Part shown: one piece after another, positions 29,510-51,075 of the stretch
How positions within the stretch are numbered: the first letter of the stretch is position 1
Layout of the letters: every line of letters starts with the position of its first letter
DNA from: Halarcobacter sp.
GTDB taxonomy: Bacteria > Campylobacterota > Campylobacteria > Campylobacterales > Arcobacteraceae
Direction: 5' to 3'
DNA: 64,000 nucleotides
Assembly: GCA_048571215.1 (NCBI GenBank)
Contig: CP182352.1
Span: forward strand, 2,176,001 to 2,240,000
Made by a program: the position numbers and the translations under genes
Notes under the pieces: model-generated
Database searches by the model: none
Seen by the model: only the letters and a program-made list of their open reading frames with translations
Told to the model about the DNA's origin: nothing

Positions 29510-29929
29510 AATAAATATTTTAGATAATTTAAATTGTATGTACTCTCTTGAAGAGCGATGCTCTAGGCTTTCTCACTTTTTAGTTGTAAAAGTAAGACAA
29601 AAAGCAACCAGACGCGTTGTTGAAGCTAAAGTTCCCTCCAAGCTTTCTAATTATTTTCTGACCTGTGGGACTTGATATAAAACGTGACAAACTCACGTTT
29701 TAGCAAGTTTTTAGGCACTCAAAAGAGATAAATAAAAAGCGAGGGAACCTTCGGCGCCGAAACAGAAAAAAACGTTATTTTCATATCTCATCAAAGCTTG
29801 TCAAATCACCTACAAAGCCCTTTATATCGATATTTTATGCTATAATTACATTATTCAAATTTTAGCAAAAAAAGTTATATTTTTGCATAAATGGTATCAC
29901 ATAGGTATCACTAAATTGAAGGAATTATA

Positions 29930-31030
29930 ATGTCAAAGTTTATAAAATCTAAGAAATATGTAGGTGTAAGTTATTGTCTTTTAAAGAACAAAGACAAAAG
30001 TTATTATATCAGTTATAAGCTAAATGGTAAATATAAGAGACTACATATAGGAAAACAAAGTGAAGGTGTTAATGAATCTTTTTGCCATCAAAAAAGAATA
30101 GAAGCTATTAATAATATCAAATTTGGAGATGATAGCCCTATTGTGAATACAAAGAAAAAAGAAAAACTTTTTGATGAAATTGCTGAAATATATTTTGAAT
30201 ATAGTGAAGTTCATAATAAAGATTACAAAAACCAACGTGCTAGATATGAGAAACATATAAAGCCATATACAAGAGATTTAGCAATTGATGAAATCACACC
30301 TGAACTAATAGAAAAGATGATGCAAGATAAAAAGAAAAAACTTGCATTAAAAACAATTAATCATTTAGTTCAAGCAATAGGTACCATTTATAACCATGCA
30401 TTTAATAGAGACGTAATTAAAATTCCTAGTCCTACAAGACTTGTAAAAAAATTTAAAACAAATAATGAAAGACTTAGATATCTATGTTTAGAAGAGATTC
30501 ATGAACTATATGAAGAACTAAAAGACAATGAGCAATTATATTTGTTCACAAGACTAGCTTTAAATACGGGAGCAAGATTAAAAGCTATCACAACTATCAA
30601 AAAGAAAGATTTAGATTTAGAAAACAAGATAGTATCATTGCGTGATTATAAAAATGAATCATATTACAGAGGATTTCTACAAGATGATATAGTTAATATA
30701 TTAAAAAAAAGAGCTTCTAAATTAAGAAGTAATGATTACATTCTAATGTATGATACTAAAGTTATTGGTAACCTTGATGACTATATAAGCAGAAAAATGA
30801 AGCCTGTCTTAGATGGACTTTTTAACAAAGACTTAGACATAAAAGATACTCGAAATAGAGTTGTAATACATACTTTACGCCATACTTTTGCCTCACACCT
30901 TGCAATAAATGGTACTCCCATATTTACAATTCAAAAATTAATGAATCACAAAGATATAAAACAAACTATGAGATATGCAAAACTAAGTCCTGATAGTGGT
31001 AAAGAGTTTATTAATAGGCTATACAAATAA
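29930..31030 (+). CDS. Tyrosine integrase
   Basis: TGAR, HTLRHTFASHL, MNHKDIKQTMRY. Confidence 0.95.
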   Translation: MSKFIKSKKYVGVSYCLLKNKDKSYYISYKLNGKYKRLHIGKQSEGVNESFCHQKRIEAINNIKFGDDSPIVNTKKKEKLFDEIAEIYFEYSEVHNKDYKNQRARYEKHIKPYTRDLAIDEITPELIEKMMQDKKKKLALKTINHLVQAIGTIYNHAFNRDVIKIPSPTRLVKKFKTNNERLRYLCLEEIHELYEELKDNEQLYLFTRLALNTGARLKAITTIKKKDLDLENKIVSLRDYKNESYYRGFLQDDIVNILKKRASKLRSNDYILMYDTKVIGNLDDYISRKMKPVLDGLFNKDLDIKDTRNRVVIHTLRHTFASHLAINGTPIFTIQKLMNHKDIKQTMRYAKLSPDSGKEFINRLYK

Positions 31031-31164
31031 TAAAGAGAATTAGAGCTTTTTAAAATAAACTTGATTTTAAGTAATAAATTCGTATTATATAGATTGTAAA
31101 TCCGTATTTTATATTTAGTAAATTCGTAAAATACTGATATTTATTTCGTAAAAAGGATTATATT

Positions 31165-32415
31165 ATGGTACATAGAAAGATTGAACCAACAATAGTTGAA
31201 ATGCTTAAATACTTTAGAGTTGTTGCAATAAATGGACCGAGACAATCAGGAAAAACTACTCTTCAAAAGAAAATAGCAAAAAGTAAAGAAATGGACTATT
31301 ACACTTTTGATGATAGTGAAACTTTTGATACAGTAACAAATGATACAAATGGATTCATTGATTATATCTCAAAAGAAAAGAATGTAGCTATTGATGAAGT
31401 TCAAATGATACCAAGAGTAATACCTGCAATAAAAATGGCGGTAGATAGTGAAAATAGAAAAGGCATGTTTTTATTAACGGGTTCTTCTGATATGTTTAAG
31501 AACTCAAAGATAAAAGAATCTTTAGCAGGGAGAATGGCAAGTTTTAATCTATTTCCTTTATCTTACGCAGAGATAAACAAAAGAGATATAAATATTATAG
31601 ATAAACTTTTTAGTGATGATTTTAATGATTTTGAAATTTATAAGGACACATCAAGAGAATCTTTTATAAGTGCAGTTATAAATGGTGGTTACCCTGAAGT
31701 TTATGAGTTACCAACTAAAGCAAAAAAAGCATGGTTCGATTTTTATATAAAATCAAGAATTACAAAAGATATAGCAGATTTTGAAAATGTGCATTTAGAT
31801 AAAATAATTCACTTAGATAAATTACTAAAAGTTTTAGCTTCACAAGTAGGCTCAATTGTAAATTACACAAGTATTGCTAATTCTATTGGACTTGCAGATA
31901 AAACAGTTAGAAAATATATAGGACTTTTAGAAGCTTTATATATCGTAAAACTAATTCCTGCATATTCAAATAATATGCTAAAAAGAGTAATAAAAAGTCC
32001 AAAAGTTCATTTTATAGATTCAGGGTTAGCAAGTTACCTTTTAAACTCAAGTGTTGAGGCTTCTTTAGTAGGTAAAAATGAGCATTTAGGAAATCTAGTT
32101 GAAACCTTTGTATATAGTGAACTAATTAAACATCAATCATACTCAGAAGAAAATATAGAAATTTATCACTATAGAGACCAACAACAAAAAGAAGTTGATT
32201 TTGTAATTGAATCAAATTCAGGTGATATTGTAGCACTTGAAATCAAATCAGGTTCAACCATTAAAAAAGAACAATTTAAAGGTCTTCTAGCTCTAGCTCA
32301 AACAATTAAAAAGAAAAATTTTAAAGGTATTGTTTTATATGGTGGAGATAAGATATTGCCTTTCAAAATTGAAGAATATCAATTTTGGGCAATTCCTTTA
32401 AGAGTATTAATTTAA
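31165..32415 (+). CDS. AAA-family ATPase with DUF4143 domain
   Basis: GPRQSGKTT, IDEVQ, LTGSS, LAGR, EVDFVIE..ALEIK. Confidence 0.9.
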   Translation: MVHRKIEPTIVEMLKYFRVVAINGPRQSGKTTLQKKIAKSKEMDYYTFDDSETFDTVTNDTNGFIDYISKEKNVAIDEVQMIPRVIPAIKMAVDSENRKGMFLLTGSSDMFKNSKIKESLAGRMASFNLFPLSYAEINKRDINIIDKLFSDDFNDFEIYKDTSRESFISAVINGGYPEVYELPTKAKKAWFDFYIKSRITKDIADFENVHLDKIIHLDKLLKVLASQVGSIVNYTSIANSIGLADKTVRKYIGLLEALYIVKLIPAYSNNMLKRVIKSPKVHFIDSGLASYLLNSSVEASLVGKNEHLGNLVETFVYSELIKHQSYSEENIEIYHYRDQQQKEVDFVIESNSGDIVALEIKSGSTIKKEQFKGLLALAQTIKKKNFKGIVLYGGDKILPFKIEEYQFWAIPLRVLI

Positions 32416-32433
32416 TTAAATATATTATACTTT

Positions 32434-32577
32434 ATGCATAAATATCAAGAATTAAAATATCTTGAAAAATATAATATATGTGAAGAAGAAAAAATAAAAC
32501 TAATAGAAAACTTATATAGATTAGCACATATTAATTTCAATAATTTTATTGAGAATAATTGAAAAATTATATATTAG
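32434..32577 (+). CDS. 47-aa ORF preceding the recoded recombinase (one TGA, probably Gly)
   Basis: MHKYQELKYLEKYNICEEEKIKLIENLYRLAHINFNNFIENN(TGA)KIIY-TAG. Confidence 0.45.
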
Positions 32578-32594
32578 TATTTAAATACAGAGAT

Positions 32595-34400
32595 ATGAAT
32601 AAAAATGTAATTATTTATTGTAGAGTATCTACCGATAAACAATCTAAAACTTGAGAAAGTTTAGAAGAACAAGAAAGGCAATGTAGGGAATATTGTAAAA
32701 ATAATGGTTACCAAGTTTTAGCAGTATTTTCAGAACAATTTACTTGAACAAAAGATAGAAGACCAAAAGTTCAAGAAGCTCTAGAGTTTATAAAAAACTC
32801 TGAGCTTCAAATTAATCACATCATAGTATTAAAAATAGATAGAGTTAGTAGATGATGAATTTTAATACACGATAGCTTTAAAAATCAATTTAAAGCATTA
32901 TGAGTAACATTAAAAGATACATACTGAGTTATATGAGAAGATAAAAATGTAGTTAAAATAGATTGAATTAATACGGATAAATATAATTGGGCAAAAAGTA
33001 ACTCAAATCAAATTGCAGAAAATGTAACTGTAATGATGAGTGAAAATGAAAGAAATACTATACTACAAAGGCTTTTATGACAAGCTATAAAAAATAATAT
33101 GAGATGATACAAAGTTAGAGATTCTGAGTATGGTTATAAAAATGCAAGAATTATGACTGAGTTTTGAAAAAAAACAATACAAGTTGAAAATACAGAAGAG
33201 AGTATTTATATTAAAAAACTATTTGAGTTAAAAGCTAGATGAGATTTAAGTGATAAAAAAATTGTAGATGAAATTAATTTAATGTGATATAAATCTAGAA
33301 AAAGAGTTAAATGGAATAAAGAAAAAACACAGCCAGTATGAAGTATATGATGAAAACCTCTTAGTGTTGAGCAATTGCAAAGGTATTTAAAAATGACTAT
33401 TTATGCTTGAATTGTTTGTGAGGAATGGACTTGAAATAAACCTATTAAAGCACCTTATAATTGATTAGTTAGTTTAGATGTATGGAATAAAGCTAATAGG
33501 GGAAAGTATAGGTTAACAGAAGTAGAAGATTGAATATTTAAAATAGAGTATTTTAATGGAGAAGAAAAAATTGAAGCTCCAATTATTCAAAAACACAAAA
33601 ACTATAATCCTGAGTATCCTTATTGAAAAGTTTTAGAATGTCCTATATGTTGATGACACTTAACAGCTGAAAAATCTAAATCTAAAAATTGAAGCTATCA
33701 TCATTACTATAGTTGTAGATGAAAAAAATGAGTTAGGCACAAAAATTATTGACTAAGAAGAGATGAGATTAATGAATATATTATAGAGACTTTTTCAAAT
33801 ATTAAATTTGATAAAAATATATTAAAAATATTTAATTTAATATCAAAAGATGTTTTTGAAGATAGAAAAAAAGAGCTACAAGAGAAAGATTTATTAATAA
33901 TTCAAAATATAAAAGATTTAGAAGTAAGAAAAGAATCTATTTTAAATAATATCCCAAATATAATAAACTATCCTGATATTTTAGAAGCACAAAATAATGA
34001 GCTTCAAAAAATAAAACACACTATTTGAGAATTACAAATTAAACAAAAAAACAATACTAAGTCTTTATGATTAAAAAGATTTCAAGATTGTTCTAAAAAA
34101 ATTCTCGAACACCTTGATAAACTAGTATTACAAAGGGATAATCCAGAATTAATACAGCTTGCTTTTGATGTAGTTTTTGATTGAAAAGTAAAGTTTGAAA
34201 ATTTAAAATCTCGAACACCAATTAATAAGGAGTTTTTGGCTTTAAATACAAAAAAAGATTTTCAAAAAAATTGAAAATCTTCATTAAATCTCAAATGGTC
34301 GGAAACAAATAAAAGTTACCACACAATAAAGGATTGGATTGTTAAATTAATAGACAAAATTGATAAGTGGCAGTATGTAATTGAGTGAATAAATATTTAA
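32595..34400 (+). CDS. Large serine recombinase, 601 aa, TGA=Gly (table 25)
   Basis: Open ATG to TAA except ~32 TGA; YCRVSTDKQ, EQFT*TKDRRP, IDRVSR**, IYA*, CPIC**HL, YYSCR*. Confidence 0.93.
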
Positions 34401-34797
34401 CATACTCAGGTGCTCTGAGAAATTTGATATTAGAACTTTTTTAAATTATTTATCAATAGTTGACTTGGAGGAATTAGATGAGTTTAAAAAAACTATAATG
34501 AAAGAATGTTAATTCTTTTTAAATCAATAATAAAAATACTTCTTTATATTTTGTGACACTTAATGAGGTGCATTTGTAGTAAAATAAATATTTTACTATT
34601 AAGTTATAAAATAGTTTCTAACATAAAAAATAAAAAACTTAAATATTTTAATAAAAATTCGTTATTATATAAATAATATAATTATTAAATATCTAATTTA
34701 CTAATTATTAAGTTAATAAAATTACATTTTGTAATATTTCTGCTAAATAATATTTTTATAATATATAATAGAAAAAAAAATGAAAGAAGAGTGAATA

Positions 34798-36328
34798 ATG
34801 TCAAATAATTATGAAACCATAGAAACTTTTTTAAATAACTTTGTGGAATCAATAAGAATTACTGATTCTGCACTTGAAAAAGCAGAAGCTCGTTATAAAA
34901 GTATAGGTAATTGGCTTAATAGGGAAGAATCTGCACTTGTTAAATTTGAACCTGAAATTTATTCTCAAGGTTCAATAAGATTAAATATTGCAATTAAACC
35001 TATACATGACGATGAAGAATATGATTTAGATGCAGTTTGTTTATTAAATAGATTAGCAGTAAATATTATAAGCCAAGAAAAATTAAAAAAAATAGTTGGA
35101 GAAGAATTAGACTTATATGTAAAAGAAAATGGGTTTAAAAAACCTTTACATGAGGGAAAAAGATGTTGGACTATAAAATATTCTGATTCTGCACAATTTC
35201 ATATGGATATATTACCATCCGTCCCAGATGAAGAAGGTTTTAGACAAAAGTTATTTGAAAATAATATTACGTTAGATAGTATTAATAAATTACACACATC
35301 AAGTGCAATCTCAATCACAGATAATACTTCTTCAAACTACCCATATATTCATCATGATTGGAATAAGAGTAACCCTAAGGGCTATCATGAATGGTTTAAA
35401 GAAAAATGTAAAGTTACACAATTAACAAAAAGATTTAATTCTTTGATGGTTGCAACTGAAAGCGTTGAAGAGATACCTAGTCAAGGATATAGTTTTACCT
35501 TTACAAAAAGCAATTATGATTTTAAAAAGACATAGAGATATAATGTTTAAAGGTGATAGTGAACATAAACCTATTTCTGTAATTATAACTACTCTAGCAG
35601 CCAAAGCTTATAAAGGAACAAAAGACTTAAAAGAAACTCTAGATGATATTGTTTTTGGGATGGAAAGAGAAATTGACTGCAATGAAAAATGTATAGTTTT
35701 AAATCCAATAAATCCAAATGAAAATTTTGCAGATAAATGGGAAAACGAACCAATAAAAAAAGAAGTTTTTTTTAGATGGTTAGAACAACTTAAAATTGAT
35801 TATAAATATTTGTCATCAGATAACTATGGTAATACAAAAAATTTACTTGAAAATAGTTTTGGAACAAATGCAATACAAAAAACTTATAATGATAGCTTTG
35901 GGGTAGTTAAAAATTTAGCTATAAGAGCTAAGGAATTATTATCTTTATCTCATGTTCAAAAACCAAAATGGGAAAATAATATAAAATATAGAGTTGATAT
36001 TATTTGTATGAAAAGTAAAAATGGATGGATGTCAAAAGATTTAAAAAGTGGTGAACCAATTGAAAAAAATTGGAATTTAAGATTTGAAGCAAAGATACAA
36101 AATATAGGTTCAGGAAGAAAATTTTATTGGCAAGTTGCAAATAGTGGATTAGAAGCTAAAGATGCAAATTGTTTAAGAGGTAGCTTTTATGAAGGAGTAA
36201 TATCTAAAGGTGGAAAAGTTAGAGAAGAATCAACTAGTTACAGTGGCTCACATTTTGTAAGATGTTTTGTTATTCAAGATAATAAATGTGTTGCAATTAG
36301 TGAACCATTTATTGTAAATATTATTTAA
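34798..36328 (+). pseudogene. CBASS CD-NTase with C-terminal AGS-C-like domain, split by a single frameshift
   Basis: YSQGS, EYDLD, HMDILP, SNPKGY in ORF1; PLQKAIMILKRHRD, NPNENFADKW, ESTSYSGSHFVRC in ORF2; extra T at 35493-35496. Confidence 0.88.
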
Positions 36329-36337
36329 GGAAAAAAT

Positions 36338-37378
36338 ATGAAGTCAGTAATGAATTTTATCTTAAAAATTTTTGAACTTTTAAAGAGTGACCCAAAAACT
36401 ACAATAGCGAAATATATTTTTTTTGGAGGTATTGGACTTCGAGGTATTGGACAAATAGTTTATGAATTTTCCGATAAAGATGTTTCTCATACTCTTACAT
36501 TTTCTGATGGTATTGATTATACTGGATATCTTTTAGTCTTTATAGGTATTGTATTATTAATGATTAGATTTTTTACTATAAAAAACAATTCTCCTACTTT
36601 AGCTTATGGTATTGGCATGGAAAATATGGATATACATTTACCGTTAAAAGCAATTCCTAGTTATGAAAGATATGATTGTATAGAGTTAAGTATTCCTGAA
36701 ATAAATTCATATGATAAAAATGAAGTACTTGAAATTTATAAATTTATTAAAACACTAATTAATTCAAGAGTAGAAAATAAAAACTCACAAAAGGTTTATA
36801 TTGGAGCATTAGGAAGTTTTCCATATCTTTTTTTATTAGGAACCTTATTTAGAAATGCATATTCTCATATACAGTTACTAGATTATGATAGACATGCTAG
36901 TGGCGGAGGGAAATGGTATAAGTTACCACCATATAATGAAAGTACAGAAAAGCTATTTCACAAATTAACGTATGAAGATAAATCTATCGAAGAGAAAATA
37001 CATGAGTTAATAGAAAATGAATTAGATGAAGTAGGTATTGCATTATCATATACTTTTCCTATTAATAAAAAGGCTATTCCTGAATACTTAAGAACCAATA
37101 TACTTTATTTAGAGCATACTTATGGTATAGGGCATGACAAATTATCAAATGAGGAAGCACAAAGAAATTTAATTAATGAATTATCTAAATATATATCTTT
37201 ATTTGCTGATAATGGTAAAAAAATTCATTTATTTGTATCTGCACAATCTTCAATATGTATTAATATAGGGAAATCTTATATGAATAATTCTCATGGAACT
37301 TTAATATTACATAATTATGATAGTTCTACAATAAAATATAATTGGAATATTAAGTTTAATAAAAATAATATAGATTAA
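36338..37378 (+). CDS. 2TM-SAVED CBASS effector (Cap14-like)
   Basis: Two N-terminal TM segments; SAVED-like IHLFVSAQSSICINIG; directly after CD-NTase. Confidence 0.85.
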   Translation: MKSVMNFILKIFELLKSDPKTTIAKYIFFGGIGLRGIGQIVYEFSDKDVSHTLTFSDGIDYTGYLLVFIGIVLLMIRFFTIKNNSPTLAYGIGMENMDIHLPLKAIPSYERYDCIELSIPEINSYDKNEVLEIYKFIKTLINSRVENKNSQKVYIGALGSFPYLFLLGTLFRNAYSHIQLLDYDRHASGGGKWYKLPPYNESTEKLFHKLTYEDKSIEEKIHELIENELDEVGIALSYTFPINKKAIPEYLRTNILYLEHTYGIGHDKLSNEEAQRNLINELSKYISLFADNGKKIHLFVSAQSSICINIGKSYMNNSHGTLILHNYDSSTIKYNWNIKFNKNNID

Positions 37379-37423
37379 TTTTTTTGAAATAATACAACAA
37401 TATAATAAAAAAGGATAAATTAA

Positions 37424-38074
37424 ATGACAATAGATTCATATTTTAAAGAATTAAACGAAGCAATTGATTTCACTGATAGTATGGGGTTAAAATTGCCTAA
37501 AAAAATTAATTTTGACTATGATAAACGATATTTTACGGAAGAAGGCAACTATAAACTAATCAAAGTATATAATGATATTTTTCAGTCTAAATTAATTAAT
37601 GTCTCTGATATGTATGAATTTGCATTAGGGATGATTGCAAACTGTAGTCCTCTTCATTATTTTTTAAAAAAATATTTAGATAAAGAGTTAGGTTGCAAAT
37701 CATATTTTACAATAGGATATATATTATTTGACGATGAAAAGGGAAATTCTTATCATAAAATAACTCAAGAAATTGTTAAAGATTGTCTAAATAATTCTAA
37801 GTTTCCTAAGGATCATCATGTATGGTTAACTTTAGATAGTGGTGAAATTCTTGATTTAACATTTCCTTTAACATATTCTAGTATTCATGATAAAAATTTT
37901 AATAATAGTCTAGAGCAAGGTAAAATTGGAATAAGCTTCATAAATCGGCACATTAATGACTTTCAACATTCAATGACATATAAACCAATACTTATAGGTG
38001 AAAATTTTTTTAGTAAAATCGGATTTGATTTAGAAGATATCTCGTATGTTATGTATAATAAATATATAATATAG
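37424..38074 (+). CDS. Hypothetical protein
   Basis: AAGGA RBS; HVWLTLDSGEILDLT. Confidence 0.75.
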   Translation: MTIDSYFKELNEAIDFTDSMGLKLPKKINFDYDKRYFTEEGNYKLIKVYNDIFQSKLINVSDMYEFALGMIANCSPLHYFLKKYLDKELGCKSYFTIGYILFDDEKGNSYHKITQEIVKDCLNNSKFPKDHHVWLTLDSGEILDLTFPLTYSSIHDKNFNNSLEQGKIGISFINRHINDFQHSMTYKPILIGENFFSKIGFDLEDISYVMYNKYII

Positions 38075-38173
38075 TTTATATTATTATTTAAATGTATAAA
38101 TTCTTATTAATTGTGACGCATTTGTGACAAAATGTTTATATAATTTACTAGAAATTCAATATAAGGAAAAAAA

Positions 38174-38515
38174 ATGGCATTATCAGAAATTGATTGTAGT
38201 AAAGTAAAAAACCTTGGTGATATTCAAGGTAGTGGAACAATAGACCAAACTGGAGAAAATAAAGGTATAGATAAAGGAAAAGTTGCTTGTATGCAAAAAT
38301 ATTATCTTGATGATAAAAAAAATAAAAAAGAAGCTAATGAAATAAAAATGATGATTAGCAAATATTATAAAAAATATGAGGCTGATGAAAACTTTTATAA
38401 AGCTCTTTGCAATTGTTGTCAAGAAAAAGTCAAAGGTTTTCCAGGTATTGAAGGAAGTAATCAATGGGAAAAGTTATATAAATGCTTATCCAATAAGGGT
38501 TACAAAAAAAGTTAA
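38174..38515 (+). CDS. Hypothetical Cys-containing protein
   Basis: AAGGA RBS; bidirectional hairpin at 38531-38552. Confidence 0.7.
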   Translation: MALSEIDCSKVKNLGDIQGSGTIDQTGENKGIDKGKVACMQKYYLDDKKNKKEANEIKMMISKYYKKYEADENFYKALCNCCQEKVKGFPGIEGSNQWEKLYKCLSNKGYKKS

Positions 38516-38550
38516 TTATACAAACTAAAATAGGTATAGATTATCTATAC

Positions 38551-39723
38551 CTATTTACAAAATGCTTCATCAAAACTTGGTTTGCCTAGAAACTTAACAT
38601 TACTTATCTCAGTAATATCTCTTCTTTGATTTTCTATTATGTGTAAATATCCTATTTCTTTTTTTCTCTCATTATCTATATAGTCTTTTCCTGTAAGTTG
38701 CAATAAATTTATTACAGCATCAATATAAGAAATTTTTTTATCATCTAAATCTTTGCATATTGAATTATGTGTTTCTTCTATAATTTTTTTAATAATATCT
38801 TTTTTTAGGTAATAAATATATTTTGTATCTTTTCCTAAATAAAATATAAAGTCTTTATTTGAGTTTATTTCTACTTCTCTAACAGATGGCACTCTTATTA
38901 TTGCAATATATTTTTTTGAAATTAAATCAATAATATCAATTTTATAACTTGAATTAAAAAGCTCTAAAGTAATTATTAAAGAGTATGCTATAAAAATAAA
39001 TGAAATTGTAGATAAAAACATCCTTTTTAAATGTTCTTTAAAATTGAATCTAGCAATCTTATCAAAAATTAGTATTATAAATAAAACTGCTAAGAAAAGT
39101 CCTCCCACTATTAAAAATGCTTTTATCATATTTTTTATATACAAGTAAGTGATTAAACTTAAGGTATCAAGAGAGAGATTCTCAATAATAACACCTATAT
39201 TTAATAGGTTTTCACTTACTAAAATAGTTACGATAAAAGAAGTTACTACTATAAAGTAATGTATATTTTTTAAAAATAATCCTGTTATCTTATCAAAATT
39301 AAACTCTTTGTTTTTTTCTTTAAACAATTTTTTTAAATAAAAAAATTCTTTCTCAAATCTTTTTAAAATAGTATTGTTTTCTTCTTTATGTTCAATAATC
39401 AAACACTTTATTATTATTTTTTCTTTATTCTCATGAGATACATTAGAAATTTTGTTTTTTAGTCTCTTTAAAAAGCCCTCTAAATTCTTATTTGAATATA
39501 TATTAAAGTGTTCGTATTCTATAATATTTTCATTTGAAACAATTATTGCAAATGCAGAATATTGTTTTTGAGTAGAAAACATAATCTGAAAACTACTAGG
39601 ATCATTTTCATATCTAAAACTTTCTACATACTCATCTATTTTCTGAATATTCTCTAAGTTACATTCAGTAAATAGTCCACTATATAATTTAAAATCTTCA
39701 TTTTCTTTAATCAAAATTGACAA
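38551..39723 (-). CDS. Hypothetical membrane protein
   Basis: 390 aa, central hydrophobic segments, AAGGAG RBS with TTG start. Confidence 0.75.
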   Translation of the reverse strand: MSILIKENEDFKLYSGLFTECNLENIQKIDEYVESFRYENDPSSFQIMFSTQKQYSAFAIIVSNENIIEYEHFNIYSNKNLEGFLKRLKNKISNVSHENKEKIIIKCLIIEHKEENNTILKRFEKEFFYLKKLFKEKNKEFNFDKITGLFLKNIHYFIVVTSFIVTILVSENLLNIGVIIENLSLDTLSLITYLYIKNMIKAFLIVGGLFLAVLFIILIFDKIARFNFKEHLKRMFLSTISFIFIAYSLIITLELFNSSYKIDIIDLISKKYIAIIRVPSVREVEINSNKDFIFYLGKDTKYIYYLKKDIIKKIIEETHNSICKDLDDKKISYIDAVINLLQLTGKDYIDNERKKEIGYLHIIENQRRDITEISNVKFLGKPSFDEAFCK

Positions 39724-40232
39724 GTTTTACTCCTTATAATAATTTCTAGTATATAAAAAATATGTCACAATCGACGTCACAAAAAGTATAAATTTTTAAA
39801 TTTATTATTTTAAAGCCATTTCCTGCTATTCATTATAATTAAATGGAAGATTAATTCTACTACTATTAGGACTATCCTACAAAGATAAACACTCTGTTCA
39901 TTGTTCAATAATTAATCGTCTAGTCAATCAACCAACTAATCAATTCTACAATAAGCAATTTTAAGGAAGTGTTTTTATGCACTTCTTTTTTTGTCTAAAC
40001 ACCTCTCTTAAAAGCTAATACCCATAAAATGTTTTTTGAAAATATTTAACTTCTAAAAATCAAGGATTATAAGGAGGGTCAGCAATTACAATATCCAATT
40101 TTTTCAAAAACCATATTTTGCACAAAAGATTATATAAGTGGCAAAATATTACATTTGACAGCTATTACTTGCATTGTTGATTAATTAGTGGGATTAATCG
40201 TCCTACTATTTTATATTCTTAACTTATATACT

Positions 40233-40406
40233 ATGAGTAAGATAATACATCTATCAGAAAAAGATAGAGAACAAATCGGTAAACTAAAATGTAAAATAAC
40301 CAGTTTACGAAATGAGATAAGCGATTATGAATGGGAATTAAGAAGCATTTATAAAAGCAAGAACTTAAGTAGGTTTGAAATAGAATCTACACTGCAAAAT
40401 TTATAG
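40233..40406 (+). CDS. Small coiled-coil hypothetical protein, probably part of the recoded block
   Basis: MSKIIHLSEKDREQ...; no SD; followed by hairpin AGAGGAA-TTT-TTCCTCT. Confidence 0.5.
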   Translation: MSKIIHLSEKDREQIGKLKCKITSLRNEISDYEWELRSIYKSKNLSRFEIESTLQNL

Positions 40407-40446
40407 AGGAATTTTTCCTCTTTTTTTAATACTTAATTTTTATATT

Positions 40447-41193
40447 ATGAAAAATATTACACACAAAGTTATTCAAGGAGGTTGTCTTGAAGTTATGAGA
40501 AAAATACCTAATAATTCAATAGATTTTATTTGTTCTGATTTTCCTTATAACATATCTTGAAAATGAGGTCTTACAATAAAGTGAGACAAAATAGTTAAAG
40601 CTGATTTTTGAGAATGGGATAAATGGGATTCGCAAGATGAATATTTAAACTTTGTATTTGAAATTTGTAACGAATACAAAAGAATATTAAAACCAAATGC
40701 TAGTTTAGTTTTATTCTTCTCTTATCATTATGCAGGATGGTTAGCTTATGAGTTACAAAGAAGATGATTATTTACATTTAGAAATCAAATTATCTTTAAC
40801 AAAGTAAATCCGCAAGTTCATTATAGAAAAAATGGTTTTAGATCATGTCATGAAGTTTGAGTTTGGTTAGTCAATGATTGATGAAATTTTAGTAAGCCAA
40901 GAGTATTTAACTTTTTGTGACAATCTAAAATGAAAAATGTTTTAAATTATGAGATTGGCAAAAATAAGCAATCTAATCATCCTACTGAAAAACCTGAATT
41001 TTTAATATGAGGTTTAATTGAAGTTTTTACAAATATTTGAGATATTGTTTTAGATAGTTTTGCAGGTGGTGGTACTACAGGAGTTGCTGCTTATAAAAAG
41101 AATAGAAGTTGTATTTCTATTGAAAAAGAAGCAGGATTTATTAATACTATTAGAAAAAGGCAAGAAAAAGCCAAAAATAAAAAGGGATATTAG
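40447..41193 (+). CDS. Beta-class N4/N6 DNA methyltransferase, 248 aa, TGA=Gly
   Basis: Open ATG to TAG except ~11 TGA; SIDFICSDFPYN, RILKP, HPTEKP, TNI*DIVLDSFAGGGTT. Confidence 0.92.
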
Positions 41194-41256
41194 TCCCTTT
41201 TTTGTTTCTTTATCTAATAAATAATACAATTATATATTTATATCTAGGTTTATACA

Positions 41257-41715
41257 ATGAAAAAAACAATAATATTTTTATCAACACTAAGTATCTTATC
41301 TTTTGCAAATGATGTTTATACAGATAGTAAAAACAAACTAATGTGGCAAGATAGCAAAGATGTAATGAGTATTCAAAAGCCTTATGTTACAAGAGATAAT
41401 TTTAGTAGTGGAAAATATACTAAACTTTCTGGTGATACTGCTTTTAATTATTGTGATACTTTAGTATTAAATGGTTTTAATGATTGGAGACTTCCAACAA
41501 TTGAAGAGCTTAAGGAACTAAATAAAATACAAGATGATTTATCTTTTAATAAAAGAGGTTCTTATTATTGGAGTTCAACATATAATTTAAAAGATAGTAT
41601 GAAAAATCGTTCTGTTATGGTTGGGCACGATATGAGTTTAAAAAGTCCTTTATGGGATAGAAGTTTAATAGTTGGAAATTATACAAATGTTAGGTGTGTT
41701 AGGGATATTAAATAA
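41257..41715 (+). CDS. DUF1566 (Lcl C-terminal) secreted protein
   Basis: Signal peptide, LMWQ, GFNDWRLPTIEEL, YYWSST, VRCVR. Confidence 0.88.
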   Translation: MKKTIIFLSTLSILSFANDVYTDSKNKLMWQDSKDVMSIQKPYVTRDNFSSGKYTKLSGDTAFNYCDTLVLNGFNDWRLPTIEELKELNKIQDDLSFNKRGSYYWSSTYNLKDSMKNRSVMVGHDMSLKSPLWDRSLIVGNYTNVRCVRDIK

Positions 41716-42268
41716 GACTAAACATTTGCTCACCGCGAAAGCTTATAATTTATTATAAGTCGTGGATGAGCCAACAACTGCAAGGTGTTAGTTTTTTATA
41801 GAGCCAATTCCTGCTATCCATTCCAATCAAATCAAAGATTTAATTCCATTACTATCAGGGCTATCCTGCGGAGCTAAACACCCTCTTCTATTTTTAAATT
41901 TTTATTTCATAACAGAATAAAAACAACAAACATTTCTTTTATTAGATTTTGCAAACTCAATTGTTCATAAGCTTTTTAGTCGCTATATTCTAATATCTTA
42001 TTTACTGACTCTAAAATTAAATTCTCAATATTTCAAATTCTAATTTTATACCAAGCAAAAAGCTATTTCATTTCACTTTGAAAAAAGCCCAATGAACTAA
42101 CTAAAGAGGCAAAAGCCTAAAAAAGATAAAGAGTTTAGTTTTTCTCTTCTTAAAATTAAAAAGAAGAGTTAAAAACCCTTCTGAATCTTCAAAAGAAGCA
42201 AATGCGGTTTTGCGTCGCTTAGCAAAATCTTTCTTTAGAAAAAAGGCAAAACTTTTAAAGGATATGAG

Positions 42269-42733
42269 ATGACAAAGTTAGAGATAGAAAATGAGTTTAG
42301 AGATGTAGTAGGTATAAATGAAGCTAAAAAGGTATATAAAACATTAGCTAAAAAACTTCATCCTGATGTTGGAGGAAGTGATGAAGAGTTTAAAATATTA
42401 AATGCTGTATATAATGATTTTATAGAGAATAAAATACATTTTTCAAATGATAGTAAAATTGATATTGAATTAGAGAAGATTATAAGTCAAATATTACATT
42501 ATGAGGATATTACAATAGAATTAGTAGGTTCTTGGATTTGGGTTAGTGGAAATACTAAAGAGATAAAAGATAAATTAAAAGAGCTTGGTTTTAAATGGGC
42601 TAGTAAAAAGAAGATGTGGTACTATGGAGAGATGAAAGCTAAAAATCCTAATCCTAAATCTATGGATGAGATTAAAGCTAAATATGGGAGTAAGGCTTTT
42701 AAGGATAAGGAGAGAGGTAGTATAGCAGGTTGA
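42269..42733 (+). CDS. J-domain-like protein
   Basis: YKTLAKKLHPDVGG; ends in TGA stop. Confidence 0.8.
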   Translation: MTKLEIENEFRDVVGINEAKKVYKTLAKKLHPDVGGSDEEFKILNAVYNDFIENKIHFSNDSKIDIELEKIISQILHYEDITIELVGSWIWVSGNTKEIKDKLKELGFKWASKKKMWYYGEMKAKNPNPKSMDEIKAKYGSKAFKDKERGSIAG

Positions 42734-42913
42734 TTTCTGCTATGTTATAAATTTCAAAATTTTTAAATTGTTATTTAAATTTATATTATAAGAAAGTTTG
42801 ATATTTATAAAGGTTATTACAAATAATAAGTGCATATACTAATAATTCTATAATTTATATTTAAGTAAATACTAGATAAATTTATCATTTAAGTTCTATT
42901 TAAAGGAAACACT

Positions 42914-45900
42914 TTGAATTTTTTTAAAATCTTCTTAGCTCTATTTATATTTAATATTTACTCTTTTGCAGGAGTCACATTTTATGATTTTTGGATTAAA
43001 GATTCTCCTTATCTCGAAGGTAAAACAAATAACTTTGATGCACAGTTTAAAATTAAAAATACAGGAAGTTCCTCTTTATATATTCAGCAGGTTGAAGTAA
43101 CAATATTAAATTCTAATGGTAGTTATAACAGTAATTGTTGGTATAAAAATGTCAATAAAACTTTGTATCCAAATAGTTCTTATTCATCAGGTATTGGGTA
43201 TTGTACATTAAATTCCACTGGTGATTTTAAAGTTGTAGCAAAAGTTAAATATGGAAATAATTATTATGATAGTCCAACAAAACATTCTATTACAGTAACA
43301 GCTCCTGTAAATAATGCACCCACAATAGAAAAGAGTGGAACACAACCAACAACAGTTGAAGTTGGGAAACCAATAGCATTTGCATTAAGAGCAAAAGATA
43401 GTGATGGAAATCTTTCAAGTGTAGATTTTGACTGGAATGATGGTTCTTCAAATGAAGTTGTTGGAAAAAGTGCAGCAGGAACATATGAGAATTTAGTATT
43501 TAGTAGAACATTTAATAAAACAGGAAATTTTACAGCAAGTGCAACTGCATATGATAAAGATGGTGCAAAGAGTGGAAGAATACAATTTAGTTTTTCTGTA
43601 ACAGCTCCTGTAAATAATGCACCCACAATAGAAAAGAGTGGAACACAACCAACAACAGTTGAAGTTGGGAAACCAATAGCATTTGCATTAAGAGCAAAAG
43701 ATAGTGATGGAAATCTTTCAAGTGTAGATTTTGACTGGAATGATGGTTCTTCAAATGAAGTTGTTGGAAAAAGTGCAGCAGGAACATATGAGAATTTAGT
43801 ATTTAGTAGAACATTTAATAAAACAGGAAATTTTACAGCAAGTGCAACTGCATATGATAAAGATGGTGCAAAGAGTGGAAGAATACAATTTAGTTTTTCT
43901 GTAACAGCTCCTGTAAATAATGCACCAACAATAGAAAAGAGTGGAACACAACCAACAACAGTTGAAGTTGGGAAACCAATAGCATTTGCATTAAGAGCAA
44001 AAGATAGTGATGGAAATCTTTCAAGTGTAGATTTTGACTGGAATGATGGTTCTTCAAATGAAGTTGTTGGAAAAAGTGCAGCAGGAACATATGAGAATTT
44101 AGTATTTAGTAGAACATTTAATAAAACAGGAAATTTTACAGCAAGTGCAACTGCATATGATAAAGATGGTGCAAAGAGTGGAAGAATACAATTTAGTTTT
44201 TCTGTAACAGCTCCTGTAAATAATGCACCAACAATAGAAAAGAGTGGAACACAACCAACAACAGTTGAAGTTGGGAAACCAATAGCATTTGCATTAAGAG
44301 CAAAAGATAGTGATGGAAATCTTTCAAGTGTAGATTTTGACTGGAATGATGGTTCTTCAAATGAAGTTGTTGGGAAAAGTGTAGCAGGAACATATGAGAA
44401 TTTAGTATTTAGTAGAACATTTAATAAAACAGGAAATTTTACAGCAAGTGCAACTGCATATGATAAAGATGGTGCAAAGAGTGGAAGAATACAATTTAGT
44501 TTTTCTGTAACAGCTCCTGTAAATAATGCACCAACAATAGAAAAGAGTGGAACACAACCAACAACAGTTGAAGTTGGGAAACCAATAGCATTTGCATTAA
44601 GAGCAAAAGATAGTGATGGAAATCTTTCAAATGTAGATTTTGACTGGAATGATGGTTCTTCAAATGAAGTTGTTGGGAAAAGTGCAGCAGGAACATATGA
44701 GAATTTAGTATTTAGTAGAACATTTAATAAAACAGGAAATTTTACAGCAAGTGCAACTGCATATGATAAAGATGGTGCAAAGAGTGGAAGAATACAATTT
44801 AGTTTTTCTGTAACAGCTCCTGTAAATAATGCACCAACCCACATATCTACAACAATTACACCTACACAAATTATTGAAGCAGAAGATATTAATATTAAAA
44901 CAATATTTAATGATGTTGATGGCGATTTTATTGTTAATGTAAAAGTAAGATACAAAAACATTAATTCTTTAAGTTGGACAGAATTAAATTTATCTCACTT
45001 ATCTACAGAATCAAATAATGAAATTTTTACAGGGACTATTAGTGGTGGTCTAGTAAGTGGAGAATATGAATTACAAGTTCAAGCAAGTGATAAAGAGAAT
45101 TTAACTGATAGTGATGTTTTACATACAACAGATTGGATTGCTGTTAATAGTTTTATTGTAAAAGAAAAAGGCAATAATATTCCAGAGATAATACATATCT
45201 CTACATCAGGTACAAGTACTTCTAATTCTATCAAAACTAATGAAGAAACATTAACTGTAACCCTTAAAATTAAAGATATAGATGGAAATATAGATAGATT
45301 AGAATTTGACTTTGATAAAGATTACGACTTGACAGAAGATAATGAGAAGCAAAATTTTTTCTTTAATACAACAGACAAAGAAATTACTCAAACTATTTCA
45401 TTTCAGTATACAGATGATTACTTAGAAAATTGTCCAAATTTATCAGGACAATTATATTCTGACATTTTATATGATGGCACTTGTTGGAAAAATCATAAGA
45501 GATGGAAAGCCATTGTATATGATAAAAAAGGGAATAGTACAACATTAATACAAGAAGGAGATGCCACACATATATATTCTTCAGATGGTTTAGAAAAATA
45601 TCAATTAGAAAAGAAGAATAAAGAAAAAAATGTAAAAGTTGAAGAATTAGAAAAAAATAAAAAAAATTATGATGATTATATTTCCAGCTTACTAGAAAAC
45701 ATAGATAAAACTTTAAAAGAAAATGATCCTAAACTTGGAAAATTTGAAGAGCAAGAACAAATTTTTGAGCTAAGTAAAGGTGGAGATATAATTAGTTCAA
45801 AATTAAGGATAACATATGTAGGTAGAGAAGATGAAAATGATACATCAAACTATCCTGCTAATGTTGTTCTTTCAATAAAAAGAAAAGATACACCTATATA

Positions 45901-47119
45901 TATTGGTAACAAGGAATTTAATTCAATAGCTTATAATTTAGAACATTTAAAAGCTATACTTGATCTAAGTAATAAATATATATATGATGAAATATTCTTT
46001 AAAAATATATGTTCAAAAGATGATAATCAAGTGATTGGAGTATGCCAAGCAGTTGAATTGGAATCAATAATTACTGAAGAAAGTGTAAAAGATATCGCAT
46101 CTGCAATTTCTGATAAAATGGGGAGTTCAGTTAGTGAAATTTCAAAAGCTACAAGAGATGGAGTACTAAAAGCAACTAAAGAAATTGTTTCAAGCTATGC
46201 AGAGACCCCACAAGATTTAGCTAATGCTGCAACAATAGTTTTTGGATTTACTAAAGATTTAATTAAAAATCCAAAAGAAACTATTAATAATAGCATTGAC
46301 AAGGTTAATGAAACAGCTGAAATATTAGGTATGTTTAAAGATGAATTATTAGAAGTAATACCTAATCTATCTGATATAATTAGTCATTTTACTCCTGTAG
46401 AGAAAGCATTTTTTACAGCATATATAACTACACATGTGGCACATGAATTAGCACCAACAAGTAAATTAAAACTTGCAAAATTAGCTAAAACTGATAAAAT
46501 AAAAAGAGCAAAATGGCTTAGAATTTCAAAACTTTTACAAATTTCAAAAGAACTTGGATATAAAATAAAATATTCCTATTTAATAAATTTTAATGATAAA
46601 GATTTTGATGTAATCGATCGTATTCTTACAAGAAAATATGAGAATAATCCATTAACTAAATCTGAGCATGTAATATTATCATTATTAGAAAAAGATAGAA
46701 AAAGTGAGTGGAGACCTTGGCTTTTAAATATGTGGTATGGAAATGTCTTTAATGATAAAAGAAGAGATAATTTTGATTATAATGAAGTATATATATTAGG
46801 TAAAAATGGAGATTATTATAGACTTGATTCATTCAATACTAAAAAACAACCTAAAGGAATCTTTTCGAGAAAAGATACACAAATGTCTGAACAACCTGAA
46901 CAAGCTATCAAGTATTTAGATGAGTTTGCAGAGAAATATCCTTCAGGTGCACAAATTGCTAATGTTCCAAGTAGTCAAAAAATGGGTATAACTGGAACAT
47001 TAAAAGGTCAGATGTATTTAGAAGTTCCAGTACAAAATAATAGTATACCTCAAAATATTTTAGACCATGCAAAAGATTTAAAAATTAAGATAAGAGATAT
47101 AGATGGAAAAATTTATTAA
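42914..47119 (+). CDS. Secreted polymorphic toxin with Ig/PKD-like repeats and C-terminal nuclease-like domain
   Basis: Signal peptide, five 101-aa repeats, C-terminal YRLDS..SRKDTQ..LEVPVQ..IRDIDG; overlapping small gene. Confidence 0.75.
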   Translation: MNFFKIFLALFIFNIYSFAGVTFYDFWIKDSPYLEGKTNNFDAQFKIKNTGSSSLYIQQVEVTILNSNGSYNSNCWYKNVNKTLYPNSSYSSGIGYCTLNSTGDFKVVAKVKYGNNYYDSPTKHSITVTAPVNNAPTIEKSGTQPTTVEVGKPIAFALRAKDSDGNLSSVDFDWNDGSSNEVVGKSAAGTYENLVFSRTFNKTGNFTASATAYDKDGAKSGRIQFSFSVTAPVNNAPTIEKSGTQPTTVEVGKPIAFALRAKDSDGNLSSVDFDWNDGSSNEVVGKSAAGTYENLVFSRTFNKTGNFTASATAYDKDGAKSGRIQFSFSVTAPVNNAPTIEKSGTQPTTVEVGKPIAFALRAKDSDGNLSSVDFDWNDGSSNEVVGKSAAGTYENLVFSRTFNKTGNFTASATAYDKDGAKSGRIQFSFSVTAPVNNAPTIEKSGTQPTTVEVGKPIAFALRAKDSDGNLSSVDFDWNDGSSNEVVGKSVAGTYENLVFSRTFNKTGNFTASATAYDKDGAKSGRIQFSFSVTAPVNNAPTIEKSGTQPTTVEVGKPIAFALRAKDSDGNLSNVDFDWNDGSSNEVVGKSAAGTYENLVFSRTFNKTGNFTASATAYDKDGAKSGRIQFSFSVTAPVNNAPTHISTTITPTQIIEAEDINIKTIFNDVDGDFIVNVKVRYKNINSLSWTELNLSHLSTESNNEIFTGTISGGLVSGEYELQVQASDKENLTDSDVLHTTDWIAVNSFIVKEKGNNIPEIIHISTSGTSTSNSIKTNEETLTVTLKIKDIDGNIDRLEFDFDKDYDLTEDNEKQNFFFNTTDKEITQTISFQYTDDYLENCPNLSGQLYSDILYDGTCWKNHKRWKAIVYDKKGNSTTLIQEGDATHIYSSDGLEKYQLEKKNKEKNVKVEELEKNKKNYDDYISSLLENIDKTLKENDPKLGKFEEQEQIFELSKGGDIISSKLRITYVGREDENDTSNYPANVVLSIKRKDTPIYIGNKEFNSIAYNLEHLKAILDLSNKYIYDEIFFKNICSKDDNQVIGVCQAVELESIITEESVKDIASAISDKMGSSVSEISKATRDGVLKATKEIVSSYAETPQDLANAATIVFGFTKDLIKNPKETINNSIDKVNETAEILGMFKDELLEVIPNLSDIISHFTPVEKAFFTAYITTHVAHELAPTSKLKLAKLAKTDKIKRAKWLRISKLLQISKELGYKIKYSYLINFNDKDFDVIDRILTRKYENNPLTKSEHVILSLLEKDRKSEWRPWLLNMWYGNVFNDKRRDNFDYNEVYILGKNGDYYRLDSFNTKKQPKGIFSRKDTQMSEQPEQAIKYLDEFAEKYPSGAQIANVPSSQKMGITGTLKGQMYLEVPVQNNSIPQNILDHAKDLKIKIRDIDGKIY
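43295..44838 (+). repeat. Five near-identical 303-bp tandem repeats plus a partial sixth
   Basis: Units start at 43295, 43598, 43901, 44204, 44507, 44810. Confidence 0.97.
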
Positions 47120-47687
47120 TAAAAAATATCACTACTATGATCATTGGTGGCAAGATGACAAAAAGCCTCAAGACAAACTTACTTTAGAAGAAGCTCAAAG
47201 AAGATTTAATGATAAAAAACCTACAGGAAATACATTTTATATATTAGTAGGAGAGGATGAAACTGACCCAAAATATATTATTAATTATGTTTCTATGGAC
47301 TTAATTTCAGTCTATAAATTAAATGATAATTTTGATGATATTGTACAAATTTCTTACATAATTATGCATAATTTAGATGATAATAAACTTTATTTGAATC
47401 AGTTCCACTTTAATAAATATGATGGAATAAATGCTATAAGCAATAATTTAATTATATGGTCTTTTATAAAAAATTATAATAATGGAAATCCTATATGGGA
47501 AGTTTTAGAAAAACAGAGAAATGAATATTTAGTTTTTGCTAACAACAAAGAAGAGTATAGTGATATAACTTTTACTATTAATGGTAATGAACAATGGAGA
47601 GAATATCCAAAATTTGGAAACTGGGATTGGATGATTGAAGATTTAGAGTTTTTATTAAATAAATATGAGGAGATGAAGAATGAATAA
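47103..47687 (+). CDS. Putative cognate immunity protein
   Basis: Overlaps toxin stop; cytoplasmic; YPKFGNWD tail. Confidence 0.65.
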   Translation: MEKFINKKYHYYDHWWQDDKKPQDKLTLEEAQRRFNDKKPTGNTFYILVGEDETDPKYIINYVSMDLISVYKLNDNFDDIVQISYIIMHNLDDNKLYLNQFHFNKYDGINAISNNLIIWSFIKNYNNGNPIWEVLEKQRNEYLVFANNKEEYSDITFTINGNEQWREYPKFGNWDWMIEDLEFLLNKYEEMKNE

Positions 47688-48750
47688 ATTACTTAATATT
47701 ATTTTATTATCTATTATAACAGTTTTTTTAGTATCTTGTGGAGGAGGTGGAGAAGATGGAGGAGATTCATCTTCATCATCGAATGTGGCAAGAGTTGAAT
47801 TAGGTCCTATCTCTAGTGCAACAGTAACTATATCATCTTTAAATGGTATAAAACTTGATGAGTACATAACAAATGAAAATGGATATTTTACTCCAAATAG
47901 AGAAAAATTATCAGAAGAAATTAACAATTATAACCCTGATATGAAATATGTAAGAATAATTTCAACTGGAGGAATTGATATTGACCCTAATGATGATGAG
48001 ATAATTGTGGAAAGTGAAAAGAATGAAGTTAAAGGGCAAGTTACTGGAATTCTTCCTATATCAAGACTCTTAGAAAATAAAGAATTTAGGATTAATGCTT
48101 TTACTTCAGTGGTTGAAAAATCTCTGAAGAATACTCTTAATATTGATGAAGAGATAATAAACAAAATTTTAGAAGAAAATAGTTTTGAAGACATAAATAA
48201 TGATGGTAATATTACTATAGATGACATAATTGATTACAAAATGTCAGAGCATGAAACAAATGCAGAAAAAACATTAATGGAATCTTGGGTACCAGTAATA
48301 ACAAGTGGTGATGAGGAAGAAGAAAATAATTTAATTAGTGAATATAAAACAACATATAATTTAATTTCACCAATTTCAGAATTACTTCGGAATGAAAAAC
48401 TTATAGTTTTCCCTTATTTAAAAAATGGTTACTACATTCAATATTCTATACAAAAAGATTATTCAGAAGCAAACTTCAAACCATATTATAATGGTGAAAA
48501 GTTAACTCTAAATAATTATGAAGTTATGTATTATCAAGAGTGTTCACTTTCAGAAGAATGTTCAAAAATTCAAAAAATATATTTTGATGGAGAAAGATAT
48601 TTTGTTGATTATTTAAAAGTAAAAAAAACATATTTTATTGATGAAGAAAAAATAACTGGATTTAGACAAAAAGAAGAAGATATAAAAAAAGAAATTGAAC
48701 AAATCGAAGAAGAAATTGAAAATATAAAAACTACTGAATTGTCTTTATAA
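47680..48750 (+). CDS. Hypothetical lipoprotein
   Basis: Lipobox LVSC followed by GGGG/S linker; DINNDGNITIDD Ca-binding-like loop. Confidence 0.8.
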   Translation: MNKLLNIILLSIITVFLVSCGGGGEDGGDSSSSSNVARVELGPISSATVTISSLNGIKLDEYITNENGYFTPNREKLSEEINNYNPDMKYVRIISTGGIDIDPNDDEIIVESEKNEVKGQVTGILPISRLLENKEFRINAFTSVVEKSLKNTLNIDEEIINKILEENSFEDINNDGNITIDDIIDYKMSEHETNAEKTLMESWVPVITSGDEEEENNLISEYKTTYNLISPISELLRNEKLIVFPYLKNGYYIQYSIQKDYSEANFKPYYNGEKLTLNNYEVMYYQECSLSEECSKIQKIYFDGERYFVDYLKVKKTYFIDEEKITGFRQKEEDIKKEIEQIEEEIENIKTTELSL

Positions 48751-48773
48751 AAAGACCTATTTAAAATAGGTCT

Positions 48774-49025
48774 TTATTTAAGTTCCCTAAAAAACTCACA
48801 TATATCAACATCTAAAATCTGGGCAATTTTATGAAGTTGAGTAATATTAAAATGCCTTTTATTTGTATATAATTCAGCAGAACTAATTAAACTTGGAGAT
48901 TTATTCCCCATTTCAAAAGATAAAGCCAATTGACTTAATTCAGCTTCTTTTCTAAGTCTAGCAACATTTTTACCAATCAAGATATGTAATTCATCTTCAC
49001 TTAAATTATTCAGTTTTTTATTCAT
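48774..49025 (-). CDS. XRE-family HTH regulator
   Basis: IGKNVARLRKEAELSQLAL..LHKIAQILDV. Confidence 0.9.
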   Translation of the reverse strand: MNKKLNNLSEDELHILIGKNVARLRKEAELSQLALSFEMGNKSPSLISSAELYTNKRHFNITQLHKIAQILDVDICEFFRELK

Positions 49026-49033
49026 TTTACCTC

Positions 49034-49097
49034 ACACTACTATTGTAATGTAAGTATAGATATGTAATAATCTTTTATCAAACTACAATTGTAGTGT
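49034..49097. promoter_or_regulatory. Paired palindromic operators in divergent promoter
   Basis: CACTACTATTGTAATG and AACTACAATTGTAGTG. Confidence 0.55.
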
Positions 49098-49112
49098 ACA
49101 AAGGAAAATATC

Positions 49113-51063: not shown

Positions 51064-51075
51064 GATTAAGAAGAG

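Follow-up and report, generated by a model that had tools for sequence, protein, structure and literature searches.

A TGA-coded large serine recombinase in a mixed-code mobile element of Halarcobacter and its proposed role in a second host

A 64,000-nucleotide stretch of a Halarcobacter sp. genome (G000; GCA_048571215.1, contig CP182352.1, positions 2,176,001 to 2,240,000 of the forward strand), here called the window, contains a gene that resembles a large serine recombinase (LSR) only if TGA is not read as a stop codon. The locus raises the question why a bacterium using the standard code (code 11) keeps such a gene, and in which cell it could be expressed. A preliminary description had regarded it as an integrase from a mobile element of a host using code 25, in which TGA stands for glycine.

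Reading frame, code and domains of the recombinase

Under translation table 25 positions 32595 to 34400 (+) form a single frame of 601 codons ending with TAA. Under table 11 no open reading frame of at least 80 amino acids spans this interval, and the product of the gene would be 19 residues, followed by a stop. The longest run free of TAA and TAG in shuffled bases of the gene was 51 codons on average and 148 at most (2000 shuffles). The frame holds exactly 32 in-frame TGA codons, 4 GGN codons (2 GGT, 2 GGA) and 7 TGG codons. An intact 601-residue LSR hidden by about 32 TGA codons, with only four GGN glycines and TGA as the main glycine codon, is what the preliminary description had claimed, and both statements were confirmed by these counts.

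At the 32 TGA positions five relatives compared at DNA level (160 cells) have TGA in 107 cells, GGN in 25, other codons in 26, a gap in 2 and TGG in none. The possibility that the closest homologs lack glycine at these positions had been raised earlier; in six code-11 homologs glycine was found in 100 of 192 cells and tryptophan in one. Since the DNA relatives show TGA or GGN and never TGG, and the code-11 homologs mostly glycine, the comparison indicates that TGA means glycine in this gene. A reading as tryptophan was ruled out by codon use at the 32 TGA positions and at the true tryptophan positions, where the relatives use TGG in 27 of 35 cells (8 gaps) and never TGA. Two proteins (P0001 and P0002) are missing from a collection of 15 billion proteins, and database relatives of the LSR are stored with tryptophan where glycine belongs. 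Standard annotation thus conceals TGA-coded genes.

The protein carries the motifs YCRVST at residue 8 (with Ser12), DRVSR at 82, CPIC at 349 and YYSC at 371. Profile searches revealed the Resolvase domain (PF00239) at residues 5–110 with 69.3 bits (cut-off 23.3) and the zinc ribbon (PF13408, Zn_ribbon_recom) with 26.4 bits (cut-off 25.3). R10, S12, R83 and R86 are unchanged across 24 alignment rows, and the zinc-ribbon residues C349, C352 and C374 are invariant. An AlphaFold model (mean pLDDT 78, pTM 0.41) has long helices at residues 407–489, as in a coiled coil. The Recombinase domain (PF07508, residues 201–302) scored 19.5 bits, just below the cut-off of 21.1; 5 of the 24 alignment members match it at E ≤ 0.05, the best at 6e-8. 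A full-length LSR match, proposed earlier as a check, was obtained with the model: the nine PDB entries most similar to it are full-length serine integrases or their complexes (E 1e-14 to 5e-11), and these fold matches lend support to the Recombinase domain. Thus, the earlier statement that all LSR regions are present holds for the resolvase, zinc-ribbon and coiled-coil parts, while the Recombinase region falls just short by profile and is supported by fold. We class the enzyme as a new LSR.

In a quick tree the window LSR and the database protein P0006 form one clade with 99% support, and dN/dS among six LSRs is 0.09–0.31. As a query the LSR hit one of 401 genomes of the phylum and one of 184 of the family, in both cases G000 itself. 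The window LSR subfamily is rare, and the element family described below surfaced only through its transfer genes. Viral contigs yielded only distant code-11 relatives or nothing, and plasmid matches were only distant (about 22–27% for the LSR in the best 20 of 29 matches, 31–37% for the coupling protein).

G000 consists of one contig of 3.6 Mb with 28.5% GC. TGA terminates 411 of its 2970 chromosomal open reading frames (13.8%), and its sole tRNA with a TCA anticodon is tRNA-Sec. No TCA-anticodon or TGA suppressor tRNA was detected by ARAGORN, which atypical tRNAs could escape, in the window or the element loci scanned. Judged from its sequence, the LSR would be unreadable in this host. A scan of G000 for ATG-started, TGA-interrupted frames outside code-11 genes gave 37 candidates. 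Every candidate longer than 164 amino acids lies in one 35-kb region around the LSR, and the longest of the 31 outside has 164 amino acids. Separately, a TAA/TAG-free frame of 1887 codons with 122 TGA was noticed in a repeated region (G000:C1:3570884-3576547); it was no candidate in a stricter scan and is probably an off-frame of a repeat protein.

The mixed-code element around the recombinase

The LSR gene lies in an element of 34.6 kb with the following features (window positions):

29756..64000, on to window-equivalent 64400 (genome 2240400): putative integrative mobilizable element with an 8-bp direct repeat
29756..29763 (+): left crossover core; secondary site, within a dispersed repeat of the host
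29893..29918 (+): GGTATCAC in tandem, found again at genome 2240268
29930..31030 (+): tyrosine integrase, code 11; PF00589, 80 bits; 92% identical to the integrase of G486
31165..32415 (+): AAA_14/DUF4143 ATPase, code 11; profile match
32595..34400 (+): large serine recombinase, 601 aa, code 25 (32 TGA)
34295..34301 (+): predicted attP crossover region TGGTCGG inside the LSR gene; reverse complement of a tRNA-Pro 3′ end (CCGACCA)
34798..37378 (+): CBASS-like cargo, code 11; SMODS/DncV-like cyclase, AGS_C, SAVED-2TM
40447..41193 (+): N6/N4 DNA methyltransferase, code 25 (11 TGA); TGA-coded homologs in G275 and L014
49434..51026 (+): conserved, mostly helical 530-aa protein, code 25 (22 TGA); 118 relatives listed
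53250..54191 (+): XerC/D-like tyrosine recombinase, code 11, TGA stop
58105..58437 (+): conserved protein of 110 aa without a Pfam match; code 25 (3 TGA)
59048..59413 (+): conserved protein of 121 aa without a Pfam match; code 25 (3 TGA)
60308..63141 (+): mobilization module, code 11: MobC, relaxase (TGA stop), VirD4-like coupling protein; PF03432, PF05713, PF02534

The element is bounded by the 8-bp direct repeat GCCGAAAC at window position 29756 and genome position 2240393, and its right end holds the 3′ half of a tRNA-Arg(TCG). A related copy in genome G486 lies in an intact tRNA-Arg(TCG) flanked by a 49-bp repeat; hence the window copy used a secondary site within a dispersed host repeat. 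This repeat (window 29520–29800) is AT-rich, about 250 bp long and has at least 40 blast hits across G000, one copy of which received the element. The tandem GGTATCAC repeats are likely arm-type binding sites of the integrase.

The TGA-coded genes at 40447, 49434, 58105 and 59048 are each flanked by code-11 genes. The ATPase stands before a TGA-coded LSR in the window and also in L001, L011, G486 and G550. Neither a Pfam or NCBIfam family nor a fold match at E ≤ 0.001 was obtained for the protein of 530 aa; its gene occurs in most elements with a visible middle part, where an HTH gene and a gene for a small secreted protein often precede it. With its integrase, direct repeats, relaxase and coupling protein, and with no mating channel found, the element appears to work like an integrative mobilizable element. 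The search for a channel covered the single family VirB4 (PF03135), which had no match in G000 and whose control was positive in 1 of 14 genomes.

Several further observations were made within the element. The CBASS-like cyclase (34798–36328; SMODS/DncV-like with AGS_C) is split by a frameshift into two frames near 35490, and a contig of sequencing run X2 is identical there. At 42914–47119 a 1401-aa code-11 protein with five near-identical PKD repeats of 101 aa is followed by a 194-aa gene; from the layout one might guess at a polymorphic toxin with its immunity protein. An IS256-family (Mutator) transposase is located at 51461–52678. The relaxase gene (60672–61520) ends with TGA in G000, G486, G487 and G492, and most of the other copies contain a TGA close to the end. 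Code 25 would lengthen the protein by about 9–33 residues, which might alter a C-terminal secretion signal depending on the host, or the TGA might reflect plain inheritance. An integron-like cassette array was considered and rejected, as the 20 largest direct-repeat families, out of 60 or more, included no inter-gene repeat family.

Related elements and code changes in the backbone

With the LSR as query the same mixed-code layout was found in L001, a Campylobacteraceae bin, and in the metagenome loci L011, L013 and L014; L012 and L015 are too short to judge the layout. Another relative, on contig L010, is 59% identical to the window LSR and lies at a tRNA-Lys; this contig is of Gracilibacteria type and all of its genes use code 25.

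A second search was based on the transfer genes, which avoids selection on the LSR. The relaxase query matched 10 genomes among 184 of the family, G000 being one of them. For the coupling protein, 6 genomes among 251 from a second family gave matches, and one of these carried two copies. Close relatives of the coupling protein come from sources named Poseidonibacter, Arcobacter, Sulfurimonas and Sulfuricurvum; together with the size, the GC content and the tmRNA tag of G000, these names point to an Arcobacteraceae host. Each genome was counted with one region, except G712 with two, and G000 was excluded, which gave 16 related Campylobacterota elements for comparison. Conserved genes interrupted by TGA occur in 14 of them, the short pieces G174 and G581 having none. 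A TGA-coded recombinase is present in 9 of the 16. It is an LSR in G275, G486, G487, G541, G550, G766 and one copy of G712 (resolvase domain, 5 TGA), and an Xer-like tyrosine recombinase in G492 and the other copy of G712. None was found in the remaining seven, namely the short or cut contigs of G417, G439, G500, G174, G581 and G760, and 40 kb searched in G574. The LSRs of the elements belong to three families which are 23–28% identical to one another, and are located either a few genes from the tyrosine integrase or just past the end of the coupling-protein gene. Unrelated recombinases filling one slot look like the mark of a needed function.

Downstream of the first TGA, dN/dS was 0.12–0.32 for nine pairs of code-25 genes and 0.07–0.21 for six code-11 pairs; the values are rough, with synonymous sites near saturation in some pairs, and do not indicate in which host selection acts. 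As the two ranges are close to each other, the TGA-coded genes of the elements appear to be under purifying selection. The code-11 genes of the elements do not avoid TGA stops (12 of 108, compared to 411 of 2970 on the chromosome).

Transfer genes themselves are TGA-coded in some elements. The second transfer module of G275 comprises a relaxase gene with 8 TGA and a coupling-protein gene with 23, and the module of G500 has 18 and 16 TGA in the respective genes. Two coupling proteins from databases have tryptophan where the window protein has glycine at 4 of 7 and 12 of 16 of their tryptophan positions. A FastTree phylogeny was calculated from 52 rows (the copies of nine genomes, every third of 120 listed hits and the two tryptophan-bearing proteins). 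The four code-25 coupling proteins are nested separately among the 48 code-11 rows, that of G500 on a long branch. The well-supported branches force four changes, so that in this tree the coupling proteins would have switched to code 25 four separate times. By this evidence the backbone has apparently lived in code-25 cells. Since G275 is a one-contig genome of the family of the host, its TGA-coded module would have entered a code-25 lineage and returned.

Other features were seen in single elements. G275 seems to carry two stacked transfer modules, and the same code-11 genome has a TGA-coded cargo gene for a 592-aa protein with a prepilin-like N-terminus (L031; G275:C1:1801730-1803508). A DUF7222 gene of 113 aa with 2–3 TGA (L001:5748-6089; L011, G492, G712) stands beside the tyrosine integrase in several elements; none was seen in the window copy.

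A proposed two-host cycle and its alternatives

In the L010 relative the LSR gene closes with codons that read tRNA-Lys in antisense; the tRNA sequence is entered at TGGT, which is complementary to its ACCA end. TGGT occurs at the same place in the LSR genes of the window, L001 and L014, where a conserved tail of about 30 residues follows. P0187, a member of the 90% cluster of P0006, shares 226 of 228 residues with P0006, after which it turns into an antisense reading of a tRNA-Pro which differs from the tRNA-Pro of G000. Reading these protein sequences, we take the tail form as the free attP and P0187 as a putative product of integration in a code-25 cell. TGGT is also found near the 3′ end in five of five printed LSRs of the other two families, which for so short a motif is weak evidence by itself. 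Tail-form and tRNA-form LSRs fall largely into separate groups of the quick tree (one change, support 43), and among the cluster members listed P0187 alone switches form within a cluster. As the two forms cluster apart, the integrated state of the window LSR clade is rarely sampled. The opposite end of the island in L010 showed no copy of the LSR tail in the listed part of the output for 20 kb searched.

We consider it likely that the element shuttles between Campylobacterota and Gracilibacteria and that the LSR is its integrase for the Gracilibacteria side; each host would have an integrase of its own, and the genetic code would be the switch. In this cycle the code-11 tyrosine integrase would insert the element in Campylobacterota, as the flanking repeats document for G486 and tRNA-Arg(TCG). 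There the LSR and the other TGA-coded genes would stay untranslated, TGA being a stop and no suppressor tRNA having been found. The excised circle may reach a code-25 cell by means of its relaxase and coupling protein together with a channel supplied by a helper, or as DNA taken up when cells are in contact. In that cell the LSR would be made, and attP in the 3′ end of its own gene would recombine with the 3′ end of a tRNA gene, here predicted to be tRNA-Pro, so that the last ~30 residues of the LSR would be replaced by tRNA antisense. Such a tail swap is seen at protein level in a sister-clade relative and at DNA level in a tRNA-form relative, and we infer it for the window LSR. Code-11 genes ending in TAA or TAG would be readable in both cells, allowing the element to return; a return trip is documented once, by the TGA-coded relaxase and coupling protein in the one-contig Arcobacteraceae-family genome G275. 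The code could thus act as a host sensor without any regulator. That a widespread element family follows this two-host life cycle, in Campylobacterota and in code-25 Gracilibacteria living on them, with one integrase for each host and TGA as stop or glycine for the switch, seems to us rather probable, if with more reserve than the role of the LSR itself.

The origin proposed in the preliminary description can be judged in this light. A code-25 mobile origin is supported by the 59%-identical relative at tRNA-Lys on the all-code-25 contig L010. The stranded piece of donor DNA which it implied is too small a picture, as TGA-coded recombinases recur in a family of elements with a code-11 backbone, where several unrelated recombinase families fill the slot and the TGA-coded genes appear to stay under selection.

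Campylobacterota elements might, alternatively, repeatedly capture Gracilibacteria genes which have no function from the moment of capture, their intact look being due only to recent and frequent captures. The TGA-coded genes are indeed untranslatable in this host, and much of the cargo is Gracilibacteria-like and differs between elements. Moreover, a complete element inside a code-25 chromosome was not encountered among the Campylobacterota genomes and metagenome contigs covered, the single Gracilibacteria island observed (L010) being code 25 throughout and thus no example of a code-11 backbone. Nevertheless, we regard one-way capture as unlikely. The same code-25 genes occupy the same places in elements that are 50–65% diverged and reside in at least two host families, a recombinase would have to be retaken into the same slot from unrelated families, and TGA-containing frames stay open while the adjacent code-11 cyclase is frameshifted. 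Backbone genes themselves became TGA-coded four times, and these four coupling proteins together with P0187 point to integration in a code-25 chromosome.

The element could also make the Campylobacterota ribosome read TGA as glycine at some stage, with no second host involved. Several small conserved element genes without known function would leave room for such a mechanism, and odd suppressor tRNAs can escape ARAGORN. However, the window and the scanned loci contain no tRNA with a TCA anticodon and the only one of the genome is tRNA-Sec, the tRNA-Pro at the end of the putatively integrated form P0187 does not resemble that of this host, and the published recoded phages, where their code differs from that of the host, show only TAG as glutamine and TGA as tryptophan, with an integrase that avoids in-frame stops, as far as the available text of that preprint describes (bioRxiv 10.1101/2021.08.26.457843). 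We therefore hold in-host recoding to be quite improbable. Wrong joining of Gracilibacteria sequence into a Campylobacterota genome during assembly or binning has very little probability left and is already largely refuted. The best-matching runs are sediment metagenomes, and L001 and G500 are fragmented bins. Against this, a contig of 13.6 kb from run X2, which may be where the assembly comes from, covers 29696–42500 with zero differences, and contigs of X5, from another study, bridge the junctions between ATPase and LSR and between the methyltransferase and its code-11 neighbours. The X5 differences in the methyltransferase before 41171 lie at third codon positions in 10 of 11 cases among the 40 of 126 entries listed. 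In addition, the layout recurs in the one-contig genomes G275, G487 and G550, and the code switches between whole genes, several times per element.

The shuttle proposal bears on the partners of Gracilibacteria. The hosts of most CPR bacteria are described as unknown in the available text of Liu et al. 2023 (PMC10746230). Gracilibacteria are present in vent deposits (PMC9793634) and occur with dominant Campylobacterota in biofilms of sulfidic springs (PMC10811913). The accessible text of both studies does not name Campylobacterota as host, and for the springs Thiothrix is suggested as host of the small cells. An element which needs both cells would point to Campylobacterota as partners of Gracilibacteria and supplies sequence markers. 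If the proposal is true, these Gracilibacteria would have Campylobacterota as hosts or as prey, and the epibiont would be a regular carrier of genes, including defence systems, between its hosts. A difference in genetic code would serve as a host-specific switch acting on individual genes, with regular gene traffic between two phyla of different codes. Furthermore, a tRNA-targeting integrase that is predicted to be active only in code 25 and is kept in a standard-code bacterium offers a possible route to Gracilibacteria genetics. No description of a mixed-code mobile element was found in the literature covered, which comprised few subscription papers.

With integrative mobilizable elements as a class the window element shares an integrase, a direct repeat, MobC, relaxase, a coupling protein, the lack of a detected mating channel and variable defence cargo. 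What sets it apart is a second integrase, along with further genes, written in another code, and apparent traces of passage through another phylum. The LSR resembles the serine integrases of Bxb1, phiC31, Listeria LI and TP901-1 in its Ser12 catalytic domain, zinc ribbon and coiled coil and, by fold, in its probable recombinase region, but is written in code 25 inside a code-11 genome. Unlike in these integrases, its predicted attP lies in the 3′ end of its own gene, integration would swap the C-terminal tail, and the predicted target is the 3′ end of a tRNA gene.

Dual-host phages predicted to interact with Gracilibacteria or Absconditabacteria and with standard-code bacteria are compatible with code 11 (Liu et al. 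2023, PMC10746230) and, like the window element, represent mobile genomes spanning code-25 and code-11 cells. As far as described in the available text, these phages avoid in-frame TGA altogether and the integrated prophages are all code 25, whereas the window element is a gene-by-gene mosaic of codes, has transfer genes instead of phage genes and sits in a code-11 chromosome. In recoded phages and prophages of standard-code hosts (bioRxiv 10.1101/2021.08.26.457843) in-frame stops silence one set of genes and the code partitions functions, as here. According to the accessible part of that preprint, the prophage integrase is free of such stops, TGA means tryptophan and a switch within one cell by suppressor tRNAs is proposed. 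In the window element, in contrast, the integrase is the recoded gene, TGA means glycine and no suppressor was found.
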